From Nitrosopumilaceae archaeon (GTDB taxonomy: Archaea > Thermoproteota > Nitrososphaeria > Nitrososphaerales > Nitrosopumilaceae): a DNA stretch of 64,000 bases. The notes beneath the pieces are model-generated. The model saw nothing but the letters and a program-made list of their open reading frames with translations. It was not told the DNA's origin and searched no databases. The stretch is taken from assembly GCA_965208905.1 (NCBI GenBank), contig OZ242365.1, positions 32,001 through 96,000 on the forward strand, written 5' to 3'. Position 1 is the first letter of the stretch. The number at the start of each line of letters is the position of its first letter. Position numbers and translations under genes: made by a program. Below are positions 414 through 62,986 of this stretch, in pieces.

Positions 414-1577
414 TGTTGTGTGGTTAGGTTTCTATCTTGATGTTGAACAATGATCTAAATTGTATAGTGTAAATAACCCGCACGGATGTGATTTGGTCAC
501 CATGTATGTATGTCTCTGAATATTGTGGCCTTTTACTATTCTAATCTCTGTTATGATGATTAATATTAAAAGACCATGAATTCAACTTTCCTGACCATCG
601 CCCGACCTTGAAGAGGCGCTCTATCTTGGACTCCGGCCCATCTGGGGTGAATGATTCTATTAACCTATGTGATCTGATCATATAAAATAAACACTAATGT
701 ATCCTTGATAACCTTGGTGCATGGTCGCTGCCTCTTACTGTCCATCGCTTAATGTATCTGGCAGGCGTGTCGTTTTTTGGATTCGATATTGTTTACAATA
801 CGATTCCAACGATAGAGCAGCTTTACATGATATGTGGTCATGTGTTTTATTGAGTTGTCTGTTTTAGACATCTAGCCTATACAAAAATTATATTATATTG
901 GGCGGTAGCTAATGAGGTGCCACAAATATAGATGGAGTCATCGGCACGGACAAACACTATGTAATGCGACAACCAGCGAAGGATCGGAGAATCAAGGTGG
1001 TATATGTCGAGTTAAGCATATCACAGTGGCACATTCAGCGGTTATGGCAGAGTGTGTCAAGACAGGGAAGTACCCGCCAAGGTTTATCAGTTGACCAAAG
1101 AAACTCACACCTTCAGATGTAGCGGTTCTGGGCATTAAGGACTTGTTGTGTAGTTGACTACGGTGTACATTTGGTAAAGGCATATGCAAACATGTGGCTG
1201 TAGTTAACGTCTGGCTTGTCGCTTTGACAGAATGACTTACAAGAAAAGTACTACGTTAATATCTGAACTTCTAATATCGTATCGTTATGGGTGTAAAATC
1301 TCCCAGAGTACTTGTGACTGATGGTTAAAATGATTTTATCAAACCTACCAAAAGTGTGTTCGAGTGTAGTGCCGTGTGCAAATTCGTGCATCTAAGATAC
1401 ATGACAGACCAAGTTTAACCATAATAACGTACATAAGATTTAACGGAAACACCACATCGTTGCTTTGTAAACGTGGCGACTTGAAGGTAAAAATTGGGAA
1501 TTATATACAAAAGTACACAACCTCGATTCTGAGAGTTAATACCTGAACCACGGAACGCGTCCATACAGCAACTCTCC

Positions 1578-1584
1578 TTAAATA
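1578..1584 (+). promoter_or_regulatory. Archaeal TATA box of tnpB-A, inside the cassette
   Basis: TTAAATA about 25 nt upstream of ATG 1607 (leaderless geometry). Confidence 0.55.
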
Positions 1585-1606
1585 CCAACATACCGTATTA
1601 CACATC

Positions 1607-2962
1607 ATGATACGGATAGTCAAGGTACCGCTACGAATGGATGTGTTGTTTGCAGAGTGGGCGCACCGCACGAATCATGCGTCAAGATATGTGTACAACC
1701 GCGCCGTATCAGAGTATTTGTTTGGCGGCGAATACATGGAGAGGGTGGTAGTGGACATACTACAGCCCTTCAAACTACCGAACACGTTGAAGGGTGTTAC
1801 GTCCGGTACGCTGAACGGTGACTACCATACATATGATTTTGGGTCGTCAAAGAGGGCATTAAAGTACGGCATGCACAAACAGCTTACGGGGTGGCGCGCC
1901 AAACATACATGGCTGCGCGAGTGCCCCACATCGTTTGGTAGGGGCGCCATACAGGATGCCTCCGTCGCATGTAGAAGGGTTATAGATGACAGCTCAGACC
2001 ACGCGCCGTACCGCCGCAAAGACGGCCGCATCATACTTTGTTCCGTTACACCGCCTGTACGAAAAGGTGGGCACACCATACATATCCCCGGATATGGTAT
2101 TGTAGAGACCGCCAAGCCCATCAATACATCATGGGGCATGCGCTCATTCAAGATAGTTGATGTCACCAAACGGGTGGACAAGCATACAAAGCCGTCAGAC
2201 CACATGTTTGAGCTGCATATTGCCATACATGAACCGGTAGAGTCGCACCGCAATACTGGTGTAATGCGGGGTGTTGATGTGGGCGGCAAGCATCTCGCCG
2301 TCACTGTCGACACACATGGCAACGTTACAATACACAACACCCGCCATAGAGCAATCCTGCGGGAGATTGACGCGCTAAAGATTTTGCGCGACCGCAAGAC
2401 ACGGCATGGCCGGAAGTGGCATATATTGAACGACCAGATTAAGCGGCTATACAGGAAGGCCAACAACATAGCCGCGAACACGATAAATCAGACGATTGCG
2501 CAGATAACTAATGGTGTGGGCGCAGTCGTGGTCGAGTCGCTCTCCGTAAAGGACATGACCACGCATGGTGGGAATTACAAACGCGCCATGAACCGTTCAA
2601 TGCGGGAGAACCGTGTCGGGGAGTTCCTGCGCAAGCTTGCGCAGTGGTGTGAGATACACAACATACCGCTGTTGGGGGCATCTGCCAAATACACGAGCCA
2701 GACGTGCCATGTGTGTGGTACGGTGGATGCTAAGTCGCGTGTCACACGCGACAAATTCATTTGCACTAATTGTACCAGAGTGTTTCACGCGGATGTCAAT
2801 GCCGCCTGGAATATCCTGTATAGGGCGGCGGGGAACGTCGTCCTAAGACGGCCGGGGCATAAGGAGGGCTACAAACCAACACCTTCTATGCTCCACTCCA
2901 TACAACGAAGTCGTCAGAAAAGGCATGAGTGTACAGCCGAGGCTGTGTACTTTTGTATATAA
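1607..2962 (+). CDS. tnpB: TnpB RNA-guided endonuclease, family A
   Basis: RuvC-I GVDVG, RuvC-II VVESL, Zn finger CHVC..CTNC, RuvC-III ADVNAAWNI; stop codon lies inside the right TIR. Confidence 0.93.
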   Translation: MIRIVKVPLRMDVLFAEWAHRTNHASRYVYNRAVSEYLFGGEYMERVVVDILQPFKLPNTLKGVTSGTLNGDYHTYDFGSSKRALKYGMHKQLTGWRAKHTWLRECPTSFGRGAIQDASVACRRVIDDSSDHAPYRRKDGRIILCSVTPPVRKGGHTIHIPGYGIVETAKPINTSWGMRSFKIVDVTKRVDKHTKPSDHMFELHIAIHEPVESHRNTGVMRGVDVGGKHLAVTVDTHGNVTIHNTRHRAILREIDALKILRDRKTRHGRKWHILNDQIKRLYRKANNIAANTINQTIAQITNGVGAVVVESLSVKDMTTHGGNYKRAMNRSMRENRVGEFLRKLAQWCEIHNIPLLGASAKYTSQTCHVCGTVDAKSRVTRDKFICTNCTRVFHADVNAAWNILYRAAGNVVLRRPGHKEGYKPTPSMLHSIQRSRQKRHECTAEAVYFCI

Positions 2963-2990
2963 TTCCCTAAAAATTCGCTGCTCATTGTAA
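2820..2990 (+). ncRNA. Putative omegaRNA scaffold plus flank-derived guide, tnpB-A
   Basis: Stems GGGCGGCG/CGTCGTCC, GGGGCATA..GGAGG/CCTTCTATGCTCC and AGTGTACAGCC-GA-GGCTGTGTACT overlapping the ORF tail; boundaries inferred. Confidence 0.55.
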
Positions 2991-4141
2991 TGACTATACT
3001 GGGATACGACCTTTTCAAATCACATACGATGCTAGACGGTAAGACTTTGACTTAGATGGCAGGTATATTCATCAAGGAAGATGATATACTTCAAGTCGCT
3101 GTGGTATGGCTGTCCAGATCTTGATGTCGCTGTATGTAATGTGATTTATAATCCCGTAAAAAGACTATATTAATGCTGGACATGAAGGCCCGTCATTTGA
3201 ATACGAATTGTGGTTATGGTGCGGCGTAAATATCTGTTATCTACAAACTTTTCTGTACAGTGTTAATCGCAATACAGTGTTGATTAAAATTTGAATATGA
3301 TGTATTTATAATATGCGTCGGTCACATATCAAATGACCTATTTTGGACCATTTATACATCCGGCGCGAATACAACAATACCTGATGCTAGAAGTATGACA
3401 TGAACACTCTATTTTATCAAAAAATACATCTCGGCGACAAAACAATTCCTCGTAAATTTTCTCTGAGACTTTTAATTTAGTCTAATTTTGAAGCGTTCTT
3501 AGTCTTACCGTGAGAATTATGCCTCATAGTTCTTGGAATATTTGACATGAGTATCAACATTATGGCAAAAATACGAATATGTTTTCAAACTTATTTCATA
3601 CAGACACAAAGACTCTAGACATTTGTGAATTACTGTATGTTGATCATAACCATTTATTTTCCAATTATATCAATAATTGAAATATCTAGACGCCCATGAC
3701 ATCTCTGACCCAGCCTGATTTGGCATTTAACAAACCCATAACTTGTCTCTACTAAATCATCCTATGTCGAAAGCGGTATTCGACTTTACTGGCAAGCAAT
3801 CACAAACAACATCAAACGTCTTTCATCAGGTTTTGATGCATTTAATGAAATAACAATCTAGAGTGGCCAGATTGTATTTGGACGATCTTAAAATTGGGTT
3901 TGAATTATTCATGTATCATTACGAGAAGGACTGATGTACAACAGCAAGATACTACAGAATTATTTTCAAGATTGCCAACTGCATCTATCGTCTATGATTT
4001 TTGTAAAAGTCTGTAACATGTAACATCAAATTGTAAAGACGTGGATATTTTTTATCTGTAAATAAATTATTATTTTTCAGTGAACCACATTAAATCGTTA
4101 AAATGGGAAAAACTAAAATATCAATTAAAATAAATCACTTT

Positions 4142-4510
4142 ATGAGTATTGACCAAGCAGCAATTCAAGCTGAAATTACAAGTATATATGAAGAGTTAGA
4201 CCTTCTCAAAAAAACATTAATAGAAATAGATTTGGCCGATGCCAAAAAAGTAAAGCGTGGCAGACCCCGTAAGACTGCAACCACAGAGACGCCCGCACCA
4301 CCCAAAAGAGGTCGTGGCAGACCCCGTAAGACTGCAACCACAGAGACGCCCGCACCACCCAAAAGAGGTCGTGGCAGACCCCGTAAGACTGCAACCACAG
4401 AGACGCCCGCACCACCCAAAAGAGGTCGTGGCAGACCCCGTAAGACTGCAACCACAGAGACGCCCGCACCACCCAAAAGAGGTCGTGGCAGACCACGCAA
4501 AAACACTTAG
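4142..4510 (+). CDS. Multi-AT-hook DNA-binding protein with N-terminal amphipathic helix
   Basis: Five RGRPRK motifs separated by TATTETPAPPKRG linkers; start probably ATG 4142 (ORF track gives 4103). Confidence 0.75.
   Translation: MSIDQAAIQAEITSIYEELDLLKKTLIEIDLADAKKVKRGRPRKTATTETPAPPKRGRGRPRKTATTETPAPPKRGRGRPRKTATTETPAPPKRGRGRPRKTATTETPAPPKRGRGRPRKNT
4256..4494 (+). repeat. 57-bp perfect tandem repeat, 4 copies plus partial fifth
   Basis: Unit CGTGGCAGACCCCGTAAGACTGCAACCACAGAGACGCCCGCACCACCCAAAAGAGGT starting at 4256, 4313, 4370, 4427, 4484. Confidence 0.97.
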
Positions 4511-4580
4511 CTCTGACACATCTGTCGATTTTTTGTTTTTTACAAATCACTCCGTCATGAATTTATGACCGTTTAATCAT

Positions 4581-28222: not shown

Positions 28223-28266
28223 GTTTGATGTGTAAATTTTATTGTGTATTATATCTTACTGATTTT

Positions 28267-29884
28267 GGTTCCTCTCTCAAAGTCGGGTGACGGTTGATGT
28301 GTGTTGGATAGTGTTAAATACATTATTAAACCGTACTATGTAATGACTTTTATAAAAAAATAGTAGGGCAGTAACACGTCCATACACAAAAAATTTGGGC
28401 ATACAATACGTGTTTGAACATGTCAAGAAGGTGGCAGAAGTAGCGTACATTATGGCGCATAGTACAGGGAAGAATACCTATGATGTTGACGTATTGATAT
28501 ACCATACAATGCGCGGTTCTGACCCCAAAGTATATTCGGCCATAACGCAGACCGCCATACGGGACGGAGTTGCCGCCCATAAAACGTACAGGACAAAGGC
28601 TGCGCAGGGCATGAAGGTGTCTGAACCCGTATTCCGCAATCCGGTGGTAAAGTTGAAAAACCAAAATTGGAGGCTTAATCCGATAGCGGGTGGATATATG
28701 GCTATTGCAAATGTTGGCTCATCAAAACACCCACATATGATAGCAATTCCTGTTTCTTCAGATGTAGTACGCCGAATAGGACAAAACAAACTGGGCAAGT
28801 TGTGGATTACGCCGACCACATACACCATAACATATTACAACAAAGTGCCCGAGGTTGAAAAGCCCCACCCACACGGCAAGTCAGAGATTATCGAGTTGCT
28901 TACGGATGTGGGTTATGTGGGCGGTACACCAAAAGATGTAATCGGTGTAGACATCAATGAAAAGAATATCACCGTAGGCGATAAAAATACGATGATACAG
29001 TTTGATCTATCATATACGATACAGGCCATTGAGGACGCAAAGACTGAAGATGTAAACAATACGTATACCCGTACACATGATAATGCCGCATATGCGGCAC
29101 GTACCGGAAGGCGTGTTGCACACAAAAAAGAGGAGGCGCGCAGAGAAAAGCAACAAGTCACATATGGCGGTCATAAATTATACAACAAACTCAGACGTAG
29201 ATACAGGAAACTCAAGAGGGAGGGCAAACACAAGAGGGCCGCCGAAATAAAGAATCAGATGAGCAGATGCGTATTGAGCATACCGCATAACCACACAAAG
29301 TCAAAGAAGAATGCTAAAAAGCGCAGGGTGACCAAAGCCATGCGCCACCACGAACATGTGCTGAGTGTGATAGCACTATGCACTGCACAGTGGGCTACAC
29401 AATCTGGGTGTTTGGTGGTGTTGGAGGATTTAACCCACATATCGTACAATTGGCAGAAGGGTGGAAAGTTTGGACGTAGAATGCGTCGCAGGTTATATTC
29501 TGCCATGATGCGAAAGGCATCAAATTTAATTTATGAAAAATCCAGATTTTTGGGAGTGGGGGCATTACATATGCGTCCACACAACACATCCAAGTTGTGT
29601 GCTGCATGCAGAACCACATTAACTGGAACTTATCATAAAAAAGACTGCACCCGCTGCCGTATGGTTGGCGTAGACAGAGACGTCAACGCAGTGGAGAATA
29701 TACGGCTAACAAGCGCCGTATCCCGATATGGCCGTCAGGTTTCGGCCAGTCTGGGCGAAGTCCGTCGTGGTGTGGATGTAATACTCGATCCCACATCACT
29801 CATACAGGGTTGCTGGCGCAACTGGGCTGACAGACTATCCCGCATGGCGGCGGTGTAACGTCACCCAACTTTGTGGGAAGAACC
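28267..29884 (+). mobile_element. Non-autonomous TIR cassette carrying tnpB (family B, copy 1)
   Basis: TIRs GGTTCCTCTCTCAAAGTCGGGTGACG and revcomp GGTTCTTCCCACAAAGTTGGGTGACG (22/26); 8-bp TSD CTGATTTT at 28259-28266 and 29885-29892. Confidence 0.9.
28343..29858 (+). CDS. tnpB: TnpB family B copy 1, +1 frameshift in A-run near the 5' end (open frame 28395-29858)
   Basis: GVDINE, VLEDL, CAAC..CTRC, DRDVNAVENI; A7 at 28354-28360 versus A6 in copy 2. Confidence 0.85.
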
Positions 29885-47260: not shown

Positions 47261-47504
47261 AACGGTAAGCTGGAGCGTTTCCACCGGAGCATAGAGGAGG
47301 AGATGGCCCACTATGAGAGCCTGCCAGAATACATCGAGTATTATAACGAAAGGAGACTTCACTTTTCACTGGATATTGCTAACTATGAAACTCCCATCAA
47401 GGCATTCTGTGTCAGGAAGGCGACAGAAGAAGTCAGGTCTAATGACCCCAACTGGATGGAGGCGGAGTCAAATGACTAGCGGACATAATTTTCGTATACT
47501 ACAC
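47261..47504 (+). pseudogene. IS481-like transposase C-terminal remnant and right end
   Basis: NGKLERFHRSIEEE..YIEYYNERRLHFSL..TP; ends ...CTACACA. Confidence 0.75.
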
Positions 47505-47851
47505 ATTAGTCATGAACTGATACGTTGCGATTGCCCAATACTGATATGATATTTTGGATTGTTGCATGACTGTGCCGACTTTGACTGAAAAGTACGTTTT
47601 ACATTTGGAACAATAGTATGGCATTTTTGGATGTTTACACTCTATTGTATCGTCATGTTTGCAGTTGGGACATTTGCGGCCATCTCTCCATATGTGGCTT
47701 TCAAACCACTTCATGGCCGTGTGATTATCAGGGAACATCTTGATTAATTCCGTTAGTGTTATTCCTTCACGGTGGCTTTTACCTGATGCTTGTTGCATAC
47801 CATACCTTAGAATTATGGAGTATGTAAATCCTACTCATCCCTATAATTCTC
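47499..47851 (-). pseudogene. IS1595-family N-terminal remnant with left end GAGAATTATAGGG
   Basis: FPD..A..WFE..W.DG..CPNC..CSKC..FSVKVGTVM..SK; end at 47851. Confidence 0.8.
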
Positions 47852-47886
47852 ATAATTTAATAGGGGGGGGGCGCATAGGGTATATC

Positions 47887-60844: not shown

Positions 60845-60954
60845 TAATGTTTTGTATATATACAGAGCGATTTAATTCCTTCGGGAGTGTGCGCAATCAG
60901 GAGGTCTGTATCCGATAACTAGAACAATAATAACTTACATATTTTATCAATAAA

Positions 60955-62569
60955 GGTTTCTCCCGCAAAGTCGGGTGGTGGTTGATGTGTGTTGGATAGC
61001 GTTAAATACGCCATTAAACCGTACTATATGATGACTCTTGTAAAAAATAGCAGGGCGATAACACGTCCATACACAAAAAATTTGGGCATGCGGCATGTGT
61101 TTGAACATGTCAGGAAGGTGGCAGAAGTGGCGTACATTATAGCGAATAATACAGGGAGGAATACCTATGATGTTAACGCATTGATGTATCGTATAATGCG
61201 CGGTCCTGACCCCAAAGTATATTCGTCCATAACGCAGACCGCCATACGGGACGGGGTTGCCACCCATAAAACGTACAATACAAAGACTGCGCAGGGCATG
61301 AAGGTATCTGAGCCCGTGTTTCGCAATCCGGTTGTAAAGTTAACAAATCAAAGTTGGAGGCTGAATCCGATAGCGGGCGGATATATGGCTATTGCAAATG
61401 TTGGCTCATCAAAATACCCACATATGATAGCAATTCCCGTCTCTTCAGATGTGGTACGTAAAATAGGACAAAATGAGTTGGGCGAGTTGTGGATTACGCC
61501 AACTACATACACCATAACATATTACAACAAAGTGCCCGAGGTTGAAAAGCCCCACCCACACGGCAAGTCAGAGATTATAGAGTTGCTTACGGATGTGGGT
61601 TGTGTGGGCGGCACACCAAAGGATGTAATTGGCGTGGATATTAATGAAAAGAACATCACCGTAGGCGACAAGAATACAATGGTACGGTTTGATCTATCAG
61701 ATACGATACAAGCCATTGAGGAGGCAAAGACTGAGGATATAAACAATACGTATACCCGTACACATGATGATGCTGTATATGCGGCACGTACCGGAAGGCG
61801 CATTACACACAAGAAAGAAGAGGAGCGCAGAGAAAAGCAACAAGTCACATATGGCGGCCCCAAACTACACAACAAACTCAAACGCAGATACAGGAAACTC
61901 AAGAGGGCCGGTAAGCTCAAGAGGGCCGCGGAGATAAAGAAGCAGATGAACAGATGCATACTGAGCATACAGCATAACCACACAAAGTCAAGGAAGAATG
62001 CTAAAAAGCGCAGGGTGACCAAAGCCGTGCGCCACCACGAACATGTGCTGAGTGTGATAGCGTTATGTATAGCACAGTGGGCTGCACAATCCGGGTGTTT
62101 GGTGATGTTGGAGGATTTAACTCACATATCGTATAATTGGCAGAAGGGGGGAAAGTTTGGACGCAGTATGCGTCGCAGGCTATACTCTGCCATGATGCGA
62201 AAGGCATCGGATTTAATTTATGAAAAGTCCCGGTTTTTGGGAGTGGAGGCATTACATATGCGTCCACACAACACATCCAAGCTATGTGCTGCATGTAGAA
62301 CCATACTAACTGGAACTTATCATAAAAAAGACTGCACCCACTGCCATATAATTGGCGTAGATCGCGACGTCAATGCAGTGGAGAATATACGGCGAACAAG
62401 TGCCGTATCCCGATACGGTCGTCAGGTTTCGGCCAGTCTGAGCGAAGTCCGTCGTGGTGTGGATGTAATACTCGATCCCACACCACTCATACAGGGTTGC
62501 TGGAGCAACTGGGCTGACAGACTATCCCGCGTGGCGGGGGTGTAATCACCCGACTTTGTGGGAGGAACC
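60955..62569 (+). mobile_element. Non-autonomous TIR cassette carrying tnpB (family B, copy 2)
   Basis: TIRs GGTTTCTCCCGCAAAGTCGGGTG and revcomp GGTTCCTCCCACAAAGTCGGGTG (21/23); homology to copy 1 stops at the TIRs; no TSD. Confidence 0.9.
61031..62545 (+). CDS. tnpB: TnpB family B copy 2 (intact)
   Basis: GVDINE, MLEDL, CAAC..CTHC, DRDVNAVENI; GTTAAATA TATA upstream. Confidence 0.88.
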   Translation: MTLVKNSRAITRPYTKNLGMRHVFEHVRKVAEVAYIIANNTGRNTYDVNALMYRIMRGPDPKVYSSITQTAIRDGVATHKTYNTKTAQGMKVSEPVFRNPVVKLTNQSWRLNPIAGGYMAIANVGSSKYPHMIAIPVSSDVVRKIGQNELGELWITPTTYTITYYNKVPEVEKPHPHGKSEIIELLTDVGCVGGTPKDVIGVDINEKNITVGDKNTMVRFDLSDTIQAIEEAKTEDINNTYTRTHDDAVYAARTGRRITHKKEEERREKQQVTYGGPKLHNKLKRRYRKLKRAGKLKRAAEIKKQMNRCILSIQHNHTKSRKNAKKRRVTKAVRHHEHVLSVIALCIAQWAAQSGCLVMLEDLTHISYNWQKGGKFGRSMRRRLYSAMMRKASDLIYEKSRFLGVEALHMRPHNTSKLCAACRTILTGTYHKKDCTHCHIIGVDRDVNAVENIRRTSAVSRYGRQVSASLSEVRRGVDVILDPTPLIQGCWSNWADRLSRVAGV

Positions 62570-62574
62570 TGTTG

Positions 62575-62789: not shown

Positions 62790-62986
62790 TTGTTGTGCAA
62801 AGAACAACGTTTCACAATTCACATGCCTCCCGGCTGCAGGTCTGTATCGTGGACACCTACGGACCGGCAGATTGATAGGCATATGGCGCGCCATCTGAAT
62901 ATCAAAATCATAGCCAGACAAAAGGATCCAACGACCAACCTCGCCCCGTACGGCATTAGTAATGTGTATCATTGTATATAATTCCC
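62790..62986 (+). pseudogene. Orphan right end related to the family-A TIR
   Basis: TGTGTATCATTGTATATAATTCCC matches 2944-2967 at 21/24; preceding sequence is decayed. Confidence 0.6.

Follow-up and report, generated by a model that had tools for sequence, protein, structure and literature searches.

A probable transposase-less mobile insertion cassette with IS1595-type ends and a tnpB cargo in a Nitrosopumilaceae genome

The window analysed here is a 64,000-nucleotide stretch of the genome of a Nitrosopumilaceae archaeon (positions 32001-96000 of contig OZ242365.1, assembly GCA_965208905.1), a single contig of 2.21 Mb with 45.6% G+C that is 99.6% complete. Close to its left edge, positions 1496-2967 form a 1,472-bp cassette whose sole gene is tnpB. 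The cassette is bounded by terminal inverted repeats (TIRs) with 30-nt arms that are complementary at 29 of 30 positions (97%), and the arms are flanked on both sides by a perfect (8/8) 8-bp target-site duplication (TSD), TAAAAATT. The terminal 24 nt, GGGAATTATATACAAAAGTACACA, occur without mismatch at both ends, where 0.00 matches were expected from 100 shuffles; they recur with 3 mismatches at 62963-62986. A putative TATA-like box precedes the gene, and a leaderless tnpB mRNA would be expected to start from it, judging by archaeal promoters in general. In variant copies that have a different left end, homology begins at this box (query position 80). The coordinates of all features are collected in Table 1.

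The cassette belongs to a family that has multiplied in this genome. Sixteen full-length copies (78-100% identity), plus fragments, were found, including a 98%-identical copy at another site. Read in tnpB orientation, 12 copies have a perfect 8-bp TSD and one has 7/8, so that 13 of the 16 carry the duplication at 7/8 or better. One perfect-TSD copy, at genome 1972621-1975198, is interrupted by some 1.1 kb of inserted DNA. A genome-wide pairing of GGGAATTATA-type ends (at most 1 mismatch) with an 8-bp TSD (at most 1 mismatch) returned 25 TSD-bounded pairs: 16 with tnpB, 4 with an IS1595 transposase and 5 miniatures of 45-450 bp. As many as 74 tnpB loci in the genome match the TnpB zinc-ribbon domain above its cut-off; 22 of these have GGGAATTATATA-like ends on both sides (one pairing is spurious), with a TSD of at least 7/8 in 15 of the 22.

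The same ends are found on transposons that encode their own transposase. A search with PF12762 identified four intact transposase genes (316-320 amino acids, ~1e-40) in elements of three types, which we call IS_a, IS_b and IS_c, the last in two copies. All four elements start with GGGAATTATA, and each has a perfect 8-bp TSD (8/8). IS_a and IS_b start GGGAATTATATA(G/C)T, and their first 12-13 nt are identical to those of the cassette; IS_c starts GGGAATTATAGTG, with the first 10 nt identical. The IS_a transposase further matches NF033547 (5.7e-51) and has the IS1595 zinc ribbon. Within the window itself, the minus strand of 47843-47852 reads GAGAATTATA and is followed by a 99-amino-acid piece of a transposase N-terminus that matches the IS1595 zinc ribbon PF12760 at 25.2 bits (E 1.6e-5), where the cut-off is 25.4.

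The cassette thus has TIRs that match those of IS1595-transposase-encoding elements together with their TSD length, and it lacks a DDE transposase with an N-terminal zinc ribbon of its own, TnpB being the only family match among its open reading frames (ORFs). Therefore, it is a cassette of the IS1595 family and not an insertion sequence (IS). Its end GGGAATTAT also fits ggnnatTAT, which we take to be the end consensus of the ISNwi1 subgroup, so that ISNwi1 is a candidate subgroup for it. Database homologues are named only 'IS1595 family transposase', with no subgroup given.

Elements of this kind extend beyond the present genome. Relatives of the cassette TnpB (E <= 1e-20) occur in 8 of the 9 other genomes of the genus that were searched and in 1 of 15 in other genera of the family, and the sequencing runs that contain cassette sequence are mostly sponge metagenomes. 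Copies in genomes G006 (TnpB 56-57% identical) and G009 (32%) have GGGAATTATATA… ends and 8-bp TSDs. In G015, a genome of another genus, an element encoding a 558-amino-acid TnpB has 39-nt TIRs, GGGAATTATATA… ends and the TSD CGGTTACG. The congener G001 supplies a composite (locus L069, 1289-3850), in which tnpB (441 amino acids) is followed by a complete 1,184-bp IS1595 element with its own two ends and a 320-amino-acid transposase (PF12762, 1.2e-35). The TSD CCGGTATC (8/8) encloses all 2,562 bp of the unit, and the inner IS alone has no duplication. Since the TSD bounds the whole unit and not the inner IS, the unit transposed by means of one tnpB-side end and one IS1595 end.

An earlier note on this DNA, made from the letters of the window alone, had described the near-perfect TIR and TSD of the cassette, had likened its end to that of the IS1595 remnant, a match confirmed here, and had read it as a transposase-less cassette with tnpB as the passenger; the shared ends, the TSDs and the composite support that reading. 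Its expectations that intact IS1595 transposons with these ends, and further cassette copies with 8-bp TSDs, would be found in the genome were likewise borne out. We put the probability at roughly 85% that window 1496-2967 descends from an IS1595-family DDE transposon and is a mobile insertion cassette lacking a transposase, with an OMEGA module, made up of an active-looking tnpB and a putative omega-RNA scaffold, as its cargo. The cassette would be moved in trans by IS1595 transposases encoded elsewhere in the genome.

The cargo gene looks active. The cassette ORF matches PF07282 (4.4e-16, 59 bits) and PF01385 (1.5e-7, 32 bits) in Pfam and scores 117 bits against the NCBIfam model guided_TnpB (NF040570), whose cut-off is 100. 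The closest solved relative is 8iaz_A (E 1.8e-11), and the motifs GVDVG, VVVESL and HADVNAA align with its catalytic positions; the RuvC D/E/D residues and a CxxC...CxxC zinc finger (two CxxC pairs) are present. In 14 of the 16 full-length copies the ORF is uninterrupted, and in most copies of the family its stop codon lies at -5 from the element end. The median ratio of nonsynonymous to synonymous substitution (dN/dS) is 0.21 at a dS of 0.415 (Nei-Gojobori, own script, 91 pairs, codons 1-405), and the tail of the gene has a lower dS, 0.25. The gene is under purifying selection (dN/dS ~0.2). The low dN/dS and the intact ORFs show that tnpB is conserved as a protein, though transposition in trans does not need it.

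The 3' end of the gene is constrained in another way. In an alignment of the last 300 nt of 15 copies from this genome and 4 from G006, nucleotide conservation is high past the TnpB core. Three indels between the versions of the two genomes shift the reading frame of the tail while the nucleotides stay conserved, which points to constraint on the RNA and not on the protein. RNAalifold predicts four helices here; 97.8% of the cells of the 23 predicted pairs are paired, with compensatory changes in 6 of the pairs. Covariation scores 0.189, compared with 0.102 in shuffles (0 of 500 reach 0.189) and at most 0.063 with the partners slid, and the fold of the window copy has z = -2.7. With a covariance model built on the last 155 nt, matches were obtained at the right end of the G015 element, at 41 bits, and at that of a second family in the present genome, the 1,639-bp elements, at 22 bits. 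In this second family helix 1 has different bases around an unchanged GGGA loop. Two sponge metatranscriptome runs contain family contigs over 1973-2969, one of which passes through the right end into a different flank; these libraries may contain DNA, so the contigs are not evidence of transcription or of transcript ends. The region is as expected for an omega-RNA scaffold that ends at the right repeat, for which the duplication and the flank would supply the guide.

The insertions also share an oriented motif in their left flank. Among the 23 tnpB-carrying elements with a TSD of at least 7/8, set in tnpB orientation, the base directly 5' of the left duplication (-9) is G in 18, with T frequent at -11 and A at -12, giving ATnG; the mirror-image C, at +9 past the right duplication, is seen in 5 of 23. 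Position -9 is the exact place expected of a target-adjacent motif (TAM) for a guide built from the duplication and the right flank. The motif could be such a TAM, or it could be an oriented target preference of the IS1595 transposase that has nothing to do with TnpB, and we keep both readings, giving the second an almost even chance. The G also stands beside both copies of the tnpB-less IS_c, on the transposase-upstream side, and on one side of IS_a, and it is missing from 4 of the 7 elements of other TnpB lineages. Because it adjoins tnpB-less IS_c and is absent from those four elements, it may be a preference of the transposase and not a TAM. On the other hand, near-identical TIRs leave a dimeric transposase little by which to read orientation, and the motif accompanies 15 of 16 elements of the cassette's own TnpB lineage as against 3 of 7 of the other lineages with the same terminus. 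The tnpB-less controls in this genome (9 elements, G at 7 of 18 ends) are uninformative; the relatives yielded one further TSD-bounded IS1595 element with cassette-type ends from 12 loci, and the IS1595 element of G009 has different ends.

These features suggest how such a system might work. IS1595 transposases, acting in trans, would mobilise the cassette by binding to the GGGAATTATA(TA) termini that it shares with their own elements, with an 8-bp staggered cut. Transcription through the right end would give an omega-RNA guided by the duplication and the right flank. Unoccupied copies of that site would then be cut by TnpB, with the 5' neighbour ATnG as TAM, and their repair on the template of a chromosome copy that is occupied would restore the cassette or spread it. 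On this proposal the lineage has adapted an OMEGA module to a DDE transposon, with an omega-RNA that ends in the IS1595 right repeat, a guide formed by the fresh 8-bp duplication plus flank, and a TnpB that drives homing of the cassette. If true, homing would explain both the purifying selection on a gene that transposition does not need and the survival of 15 of 16 insertions beside the motif. We regard this homing scheme as unlikely, at perhaps one chance in a few. In its boldest form, TnpB bound at the TAM would bias the site or the orientation of insertion by the IS1595 transposase.

Several observations weigh against parts of this picture. Three of the 16 copies (1024215, 1895575, 116544) have no TSD, and the TIRs of the cassette and of the IS1595 types diverge past the first 12-13 nt; all three IS1595 types are candidates for the one that mobilises this cassette. 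For the RNA, the covariation comes from few independent lineages and is scored on a structure derived from the same alignment, a search of window 1300-3200 against Rfam gave no matching family (the one match, HDV-like, was sub-threshold at E 0.53), and a T4 tract after the terminal hairpin could end some transcripts before the flank. As a 2026 review states in the part available to us, DDE excision itself leaves a break (PMC13565253), which makes a homing role for TnpB doubtful on general grounds.

Three other explanations of the cassette were considered. It might be an immobile fossil in which tnpB persists because the host uses it, for example in regulation or defence. In the 4 sequencing runs examined, no contig joins 1495 to 2976, as an empty site would, and the same junctions occur in a sponge metagenome from another study. 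We nevertheless consider a fossil improbable, given the 98%-identical copy elsewhere, the 12 perfect TSDs, the intact catalytic residues and the guide-RNA-like structure that still adjoins the element end. It is very improbable that the mover is a DDE transposase of another family with 8-bp TSDs, the 10-13-nt identity to IS1595 ends being convergence or chance. Only the terminal 12-13 nt are common with IS_a and IS_b, and the genome does contain further DDE families, one of rve type and one IS630-like (DDE_3); yet three distinct IS1595 types and many tnpB families have GGGAATTATA with the same TSD length, the G001 composite joins one tnpB-side end and one IS1595 end in a single TSD-bounded unit, and no element of another family has these ends among the 25 TSD-bounded pairs. 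That the cassette is an ordinary IS200/IS605-family element of the IS1341 type, with tnpB only and moved as single-stranded DNA by a Y1 TnpA, is hardly credible: TnpB is the hallmark gene of that family, and the other tnpB elements of the window lack an obvious duplication, but the cassette has 24-30-nt TIRs and its family 8-bp TSDs in 13 of 16 copies, neither of which belongs to IS200/IS605 according to the accessible text of the review (PMC13565253), and the genome, 99.6% complete and with 74 tnpB loci, returned no match to Y1 TnpA. A search of the same genome for serine recombinases also gave 0 matches.

The DNA that the cassette interrupts bears on its boundaries. The earlier note had claimed that removal of the cassette rejoins the frame of a dead DDE transposase. 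When the cassette and one TSD copy are removed, a stop-ridden plus-strand frame spans the junction and aligns, with no gap there, to two short remnants elsewhere in the genome (38% over 68 amino acids, E 4e-10; 36% over 69, E 2e-7; these E-values come from a tiny database and 5,486 queries). The gap-free alignment across the junction supports the boundaries of the cassette, and this part of the claim stands. The DDE label received no support from Pfam, which gave no credible match for any of 60 stop-free flank fragments and no family for the two paralogous remnants, and blastn of the flanks against the genome found only a 97-nt match at 73%. A 38-amino-acid piece further upstream is similar (47%, E 1e-7) to the N-terminal helix-turn-helix (HTH) found in a transposase family of this genome, which is of the rve type (Pfam rve 3.5e-12). 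A DDE transposase therefore remains a plausible identity for the rejoined frame, from weak similarity and a C-terminal motif that we take to be that of a transposase.

Table 1. Features of the cassette, its surroundings and its partner transposons (positions in the window unless marked as genome)
Feature	Position	Strand	Remarks
HTH-like remnant of the decayed transposase hit by the cassette	958..1071	+	resembles an rve-type ORF family at its N-terminus (47%, 38 aa)
Decayed C-terminal transposase frame (putative), pre-insertion part	1405..1495	+	from alignment to remnants
Left TSD copy TAAAAATT	1488..1495	.	same letters as 2968-2975
Left TIR	1496..1525	+	core GGGAATTATATACAAAAGTACACA common with right end; first 12-13 nt common with IS_a, IS_b
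Putative archaeal TATA-like box CCTTAAATACC	1576..1586	+	~26 nt upstream of ATG
tnpB, 451 aa, intact	1607..2962	+	stop codon within right TIR, 5 nt from end
omega-RNA-like conserved structured region	2823..2967	+	extends to right end
omega-RNA-like helices	2823-2843; 2847-2852/2910-2915; 2854-2858/2890-2894; 2863-2867/2883-2887	+	RNAalifold, all within 2823-2915
Terminal hairpin of omega-RNA-like region	about 2930-2950	+	predicted
Right TIR	2938..2967	-	pairs with 1496-1525
Right TSD copy TAAAAATT	2968..2975	.	same letters as 1488-1495
Predicted omega-RNA guide segment (TSD + flank)	2968..2987	+	by analogy with characterised TnpB systems
Decayed C-terminal transposase frame (putative), post-insertion part	2976..3085	+	continues the 1405-1495 frame once cassette and one TSD are removed
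Truncated IS_c-type IS1595 remnant	47499..47852	-	end GAGAATTATAGGGATGAGTAGGAT and 99 aa of transposase N-terminus
Solo terminus resembling a right end (…TGTATATAATTCCC), from a related family of short elements	62948..62986	+	from repeat comparison
IS_a	genome 1043578-1046414		2,837 bp; ends GGGAATTATATAGT / GGGAATTATATACT; TSD AAAATTAT; 454-aa ORF
IS_b	genome 1770047-1772736		2,690 bp; ends identical over 33 nt, GGGAATTATATACTTAAAATC…; TSD CAATTTTA; methylase gene broken
IS_c, two copies	genome 675271-677401, 1211856-1213986		2,131 bp; ends GGGAATTATAGTGATGGrTAGGAT; TSDs AAAATTAT, AAAAAAAT

The genome holds further tnpB elements of other kinds. About 50 of the 74 tnpB loci (the 52 outside the 22) are without IS1595-type ends. 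A second family in the window (28251-29858 and 60939-62570, with tnpB at 28395-29858 and 60989-62545, encoding 487 and 518 amino acids) has different ends, a 24-nt inverted repeat AGGTTCCTCCCnCAAAGTCGGGTG with hairpin potential, and no obvious target duplication. The two 1,639-bp elements (genome 1455264-1456902 and 2049469-2051107) stand in direct orientation 593 kb apart, and the right flank of one equals the left flank of the other, GGAAATTA. These swapped flanks look like the outcome of a later recombination or rearrangement that split one duplication, and we set them aside as an argument against TSDs.

As to the partner transposons, the passenger of IS_a is a fusion of a DNA N6/N4 methyltransferase and an HNH nuclease (Pfam N6_N4 methylase and HNH on a 326-amino-acid part). 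A transposase 67% identical to that of IS_a (P0046) occurs in a metagenome-assembled genome of Poribacteria, bacterial sponge symbionts, and the likeness hints at transfer between archaea and bacteria within sponges. Downstream of the cassette, a small ORF at window 4103-4510 overlaps five 57-nt tandem repeats (4199-4540; three identical, the outer two 63-68%), which are read as four or more GRGRPRKTATTETPAPPKR units; this motif presumably resembles an AT-hook.

A tnpB between IS1595 ends, almost certainly moved in trans, is a rare arrangement that is already known in principle, with a new partner family. With it, IS1595 is added to the few DDE families known to carry TnpB, and IS1595-type ends cover 22 of the 74 tnpB loci of this sponge symbiont, an archaeon without TnpA matches. 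The link can be purely in trans and is then missed by gene-neighbourhood surveys. With its 16 copies, its three candidates for the transposase, the autonomous composite of a relative and the oriented motif in the flank, this is a compact natural system in which to study the role of an RNA-guided nuclease in a cut-and-paste transposon.

The earlier note's remark that tnpB is an unusual passenger has to be qualified, since work from 2023 already reported TnpB within DDE transposons that have inverted ends. Altae-Tran et al. 2023 PNAS (PMC10691335), in the portion of the paper available to us, describe six DDE-linked TnpB branches, all with inverted terminal repeats, and solo TnpBs whose ends are those of relatives with a transposase and which are presumably mobilised in trans. 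The main text, to the same extent, names IS630 and never IS1595, which appears only in the profile list of the supplement, and the review (PMC13565253), also in part, gives ISL2, IS630 and IS1031 as DDE partners of TnpB. The method of the 2023 study requires a DDE gene within 1 kb of tnpB, as far as the available text describes it, so purely trans cases such as the present one would be missed. Literature searches for TnpB with IS1595 returned no relevant paper by title or abstract start, and none was found for Cenarchaeum with TnpB.

The cassette resembles these DDE-linked TnpBs (PMC10691335, in part) in its inverted ends, in a tnpB 3' end near the transposon end (within 250 bp) and in solo copies that have the ends of transposase-bearing relatives; it differs in its IS1595 partner, and the likeness is one of features and not of place in the DDE-1 to DDE-6 tree. 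Fanzor systems, the Fanzor/TnpB homologues found inside eukaryotic DDE transposons (Bao and Jurka 2013, PMC3627910, as given in the accessible part), also place a TnpB-type nuclease in TIR- and TSD-bearing transposons of several superfamilies; those are eukaryotic or viral, whereas the cassette is archaeal with a compact omega-RNA-like 3' region. IS1341-type members of the IS200/IS605 family share its length of about 1.4 kb, its single tnpB and its high copy number in archaea, but they have subterminal hairpins, lack TIRs and TSDs and depend on a Y1 TnpA. Groups of IS1595 with passenger genes ('transporter IS') were reportedly described by Siguier, Gagnevin and Chandler in 2009; the cassette has in common with them TIRs starting GG..ATTAT, 8-bp TSDs and a tendency to carry cargo, as with the methyltransferase-HNH gene of IS_a, and is set apart by its want of a transposase and by tnpB as the cargo. 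The mobile insertion cassette MIC231 of Bacillus cereus, which De Palmenaer et al. are said to have described in 2004, likewise consists of IS ends around a non-transposase gene, with the cognate transposase in trans and a TSD. That element belongs to another IS family and another host domain, and the cargo here is itself a mobile-element nuclease with a putative guide RNA.

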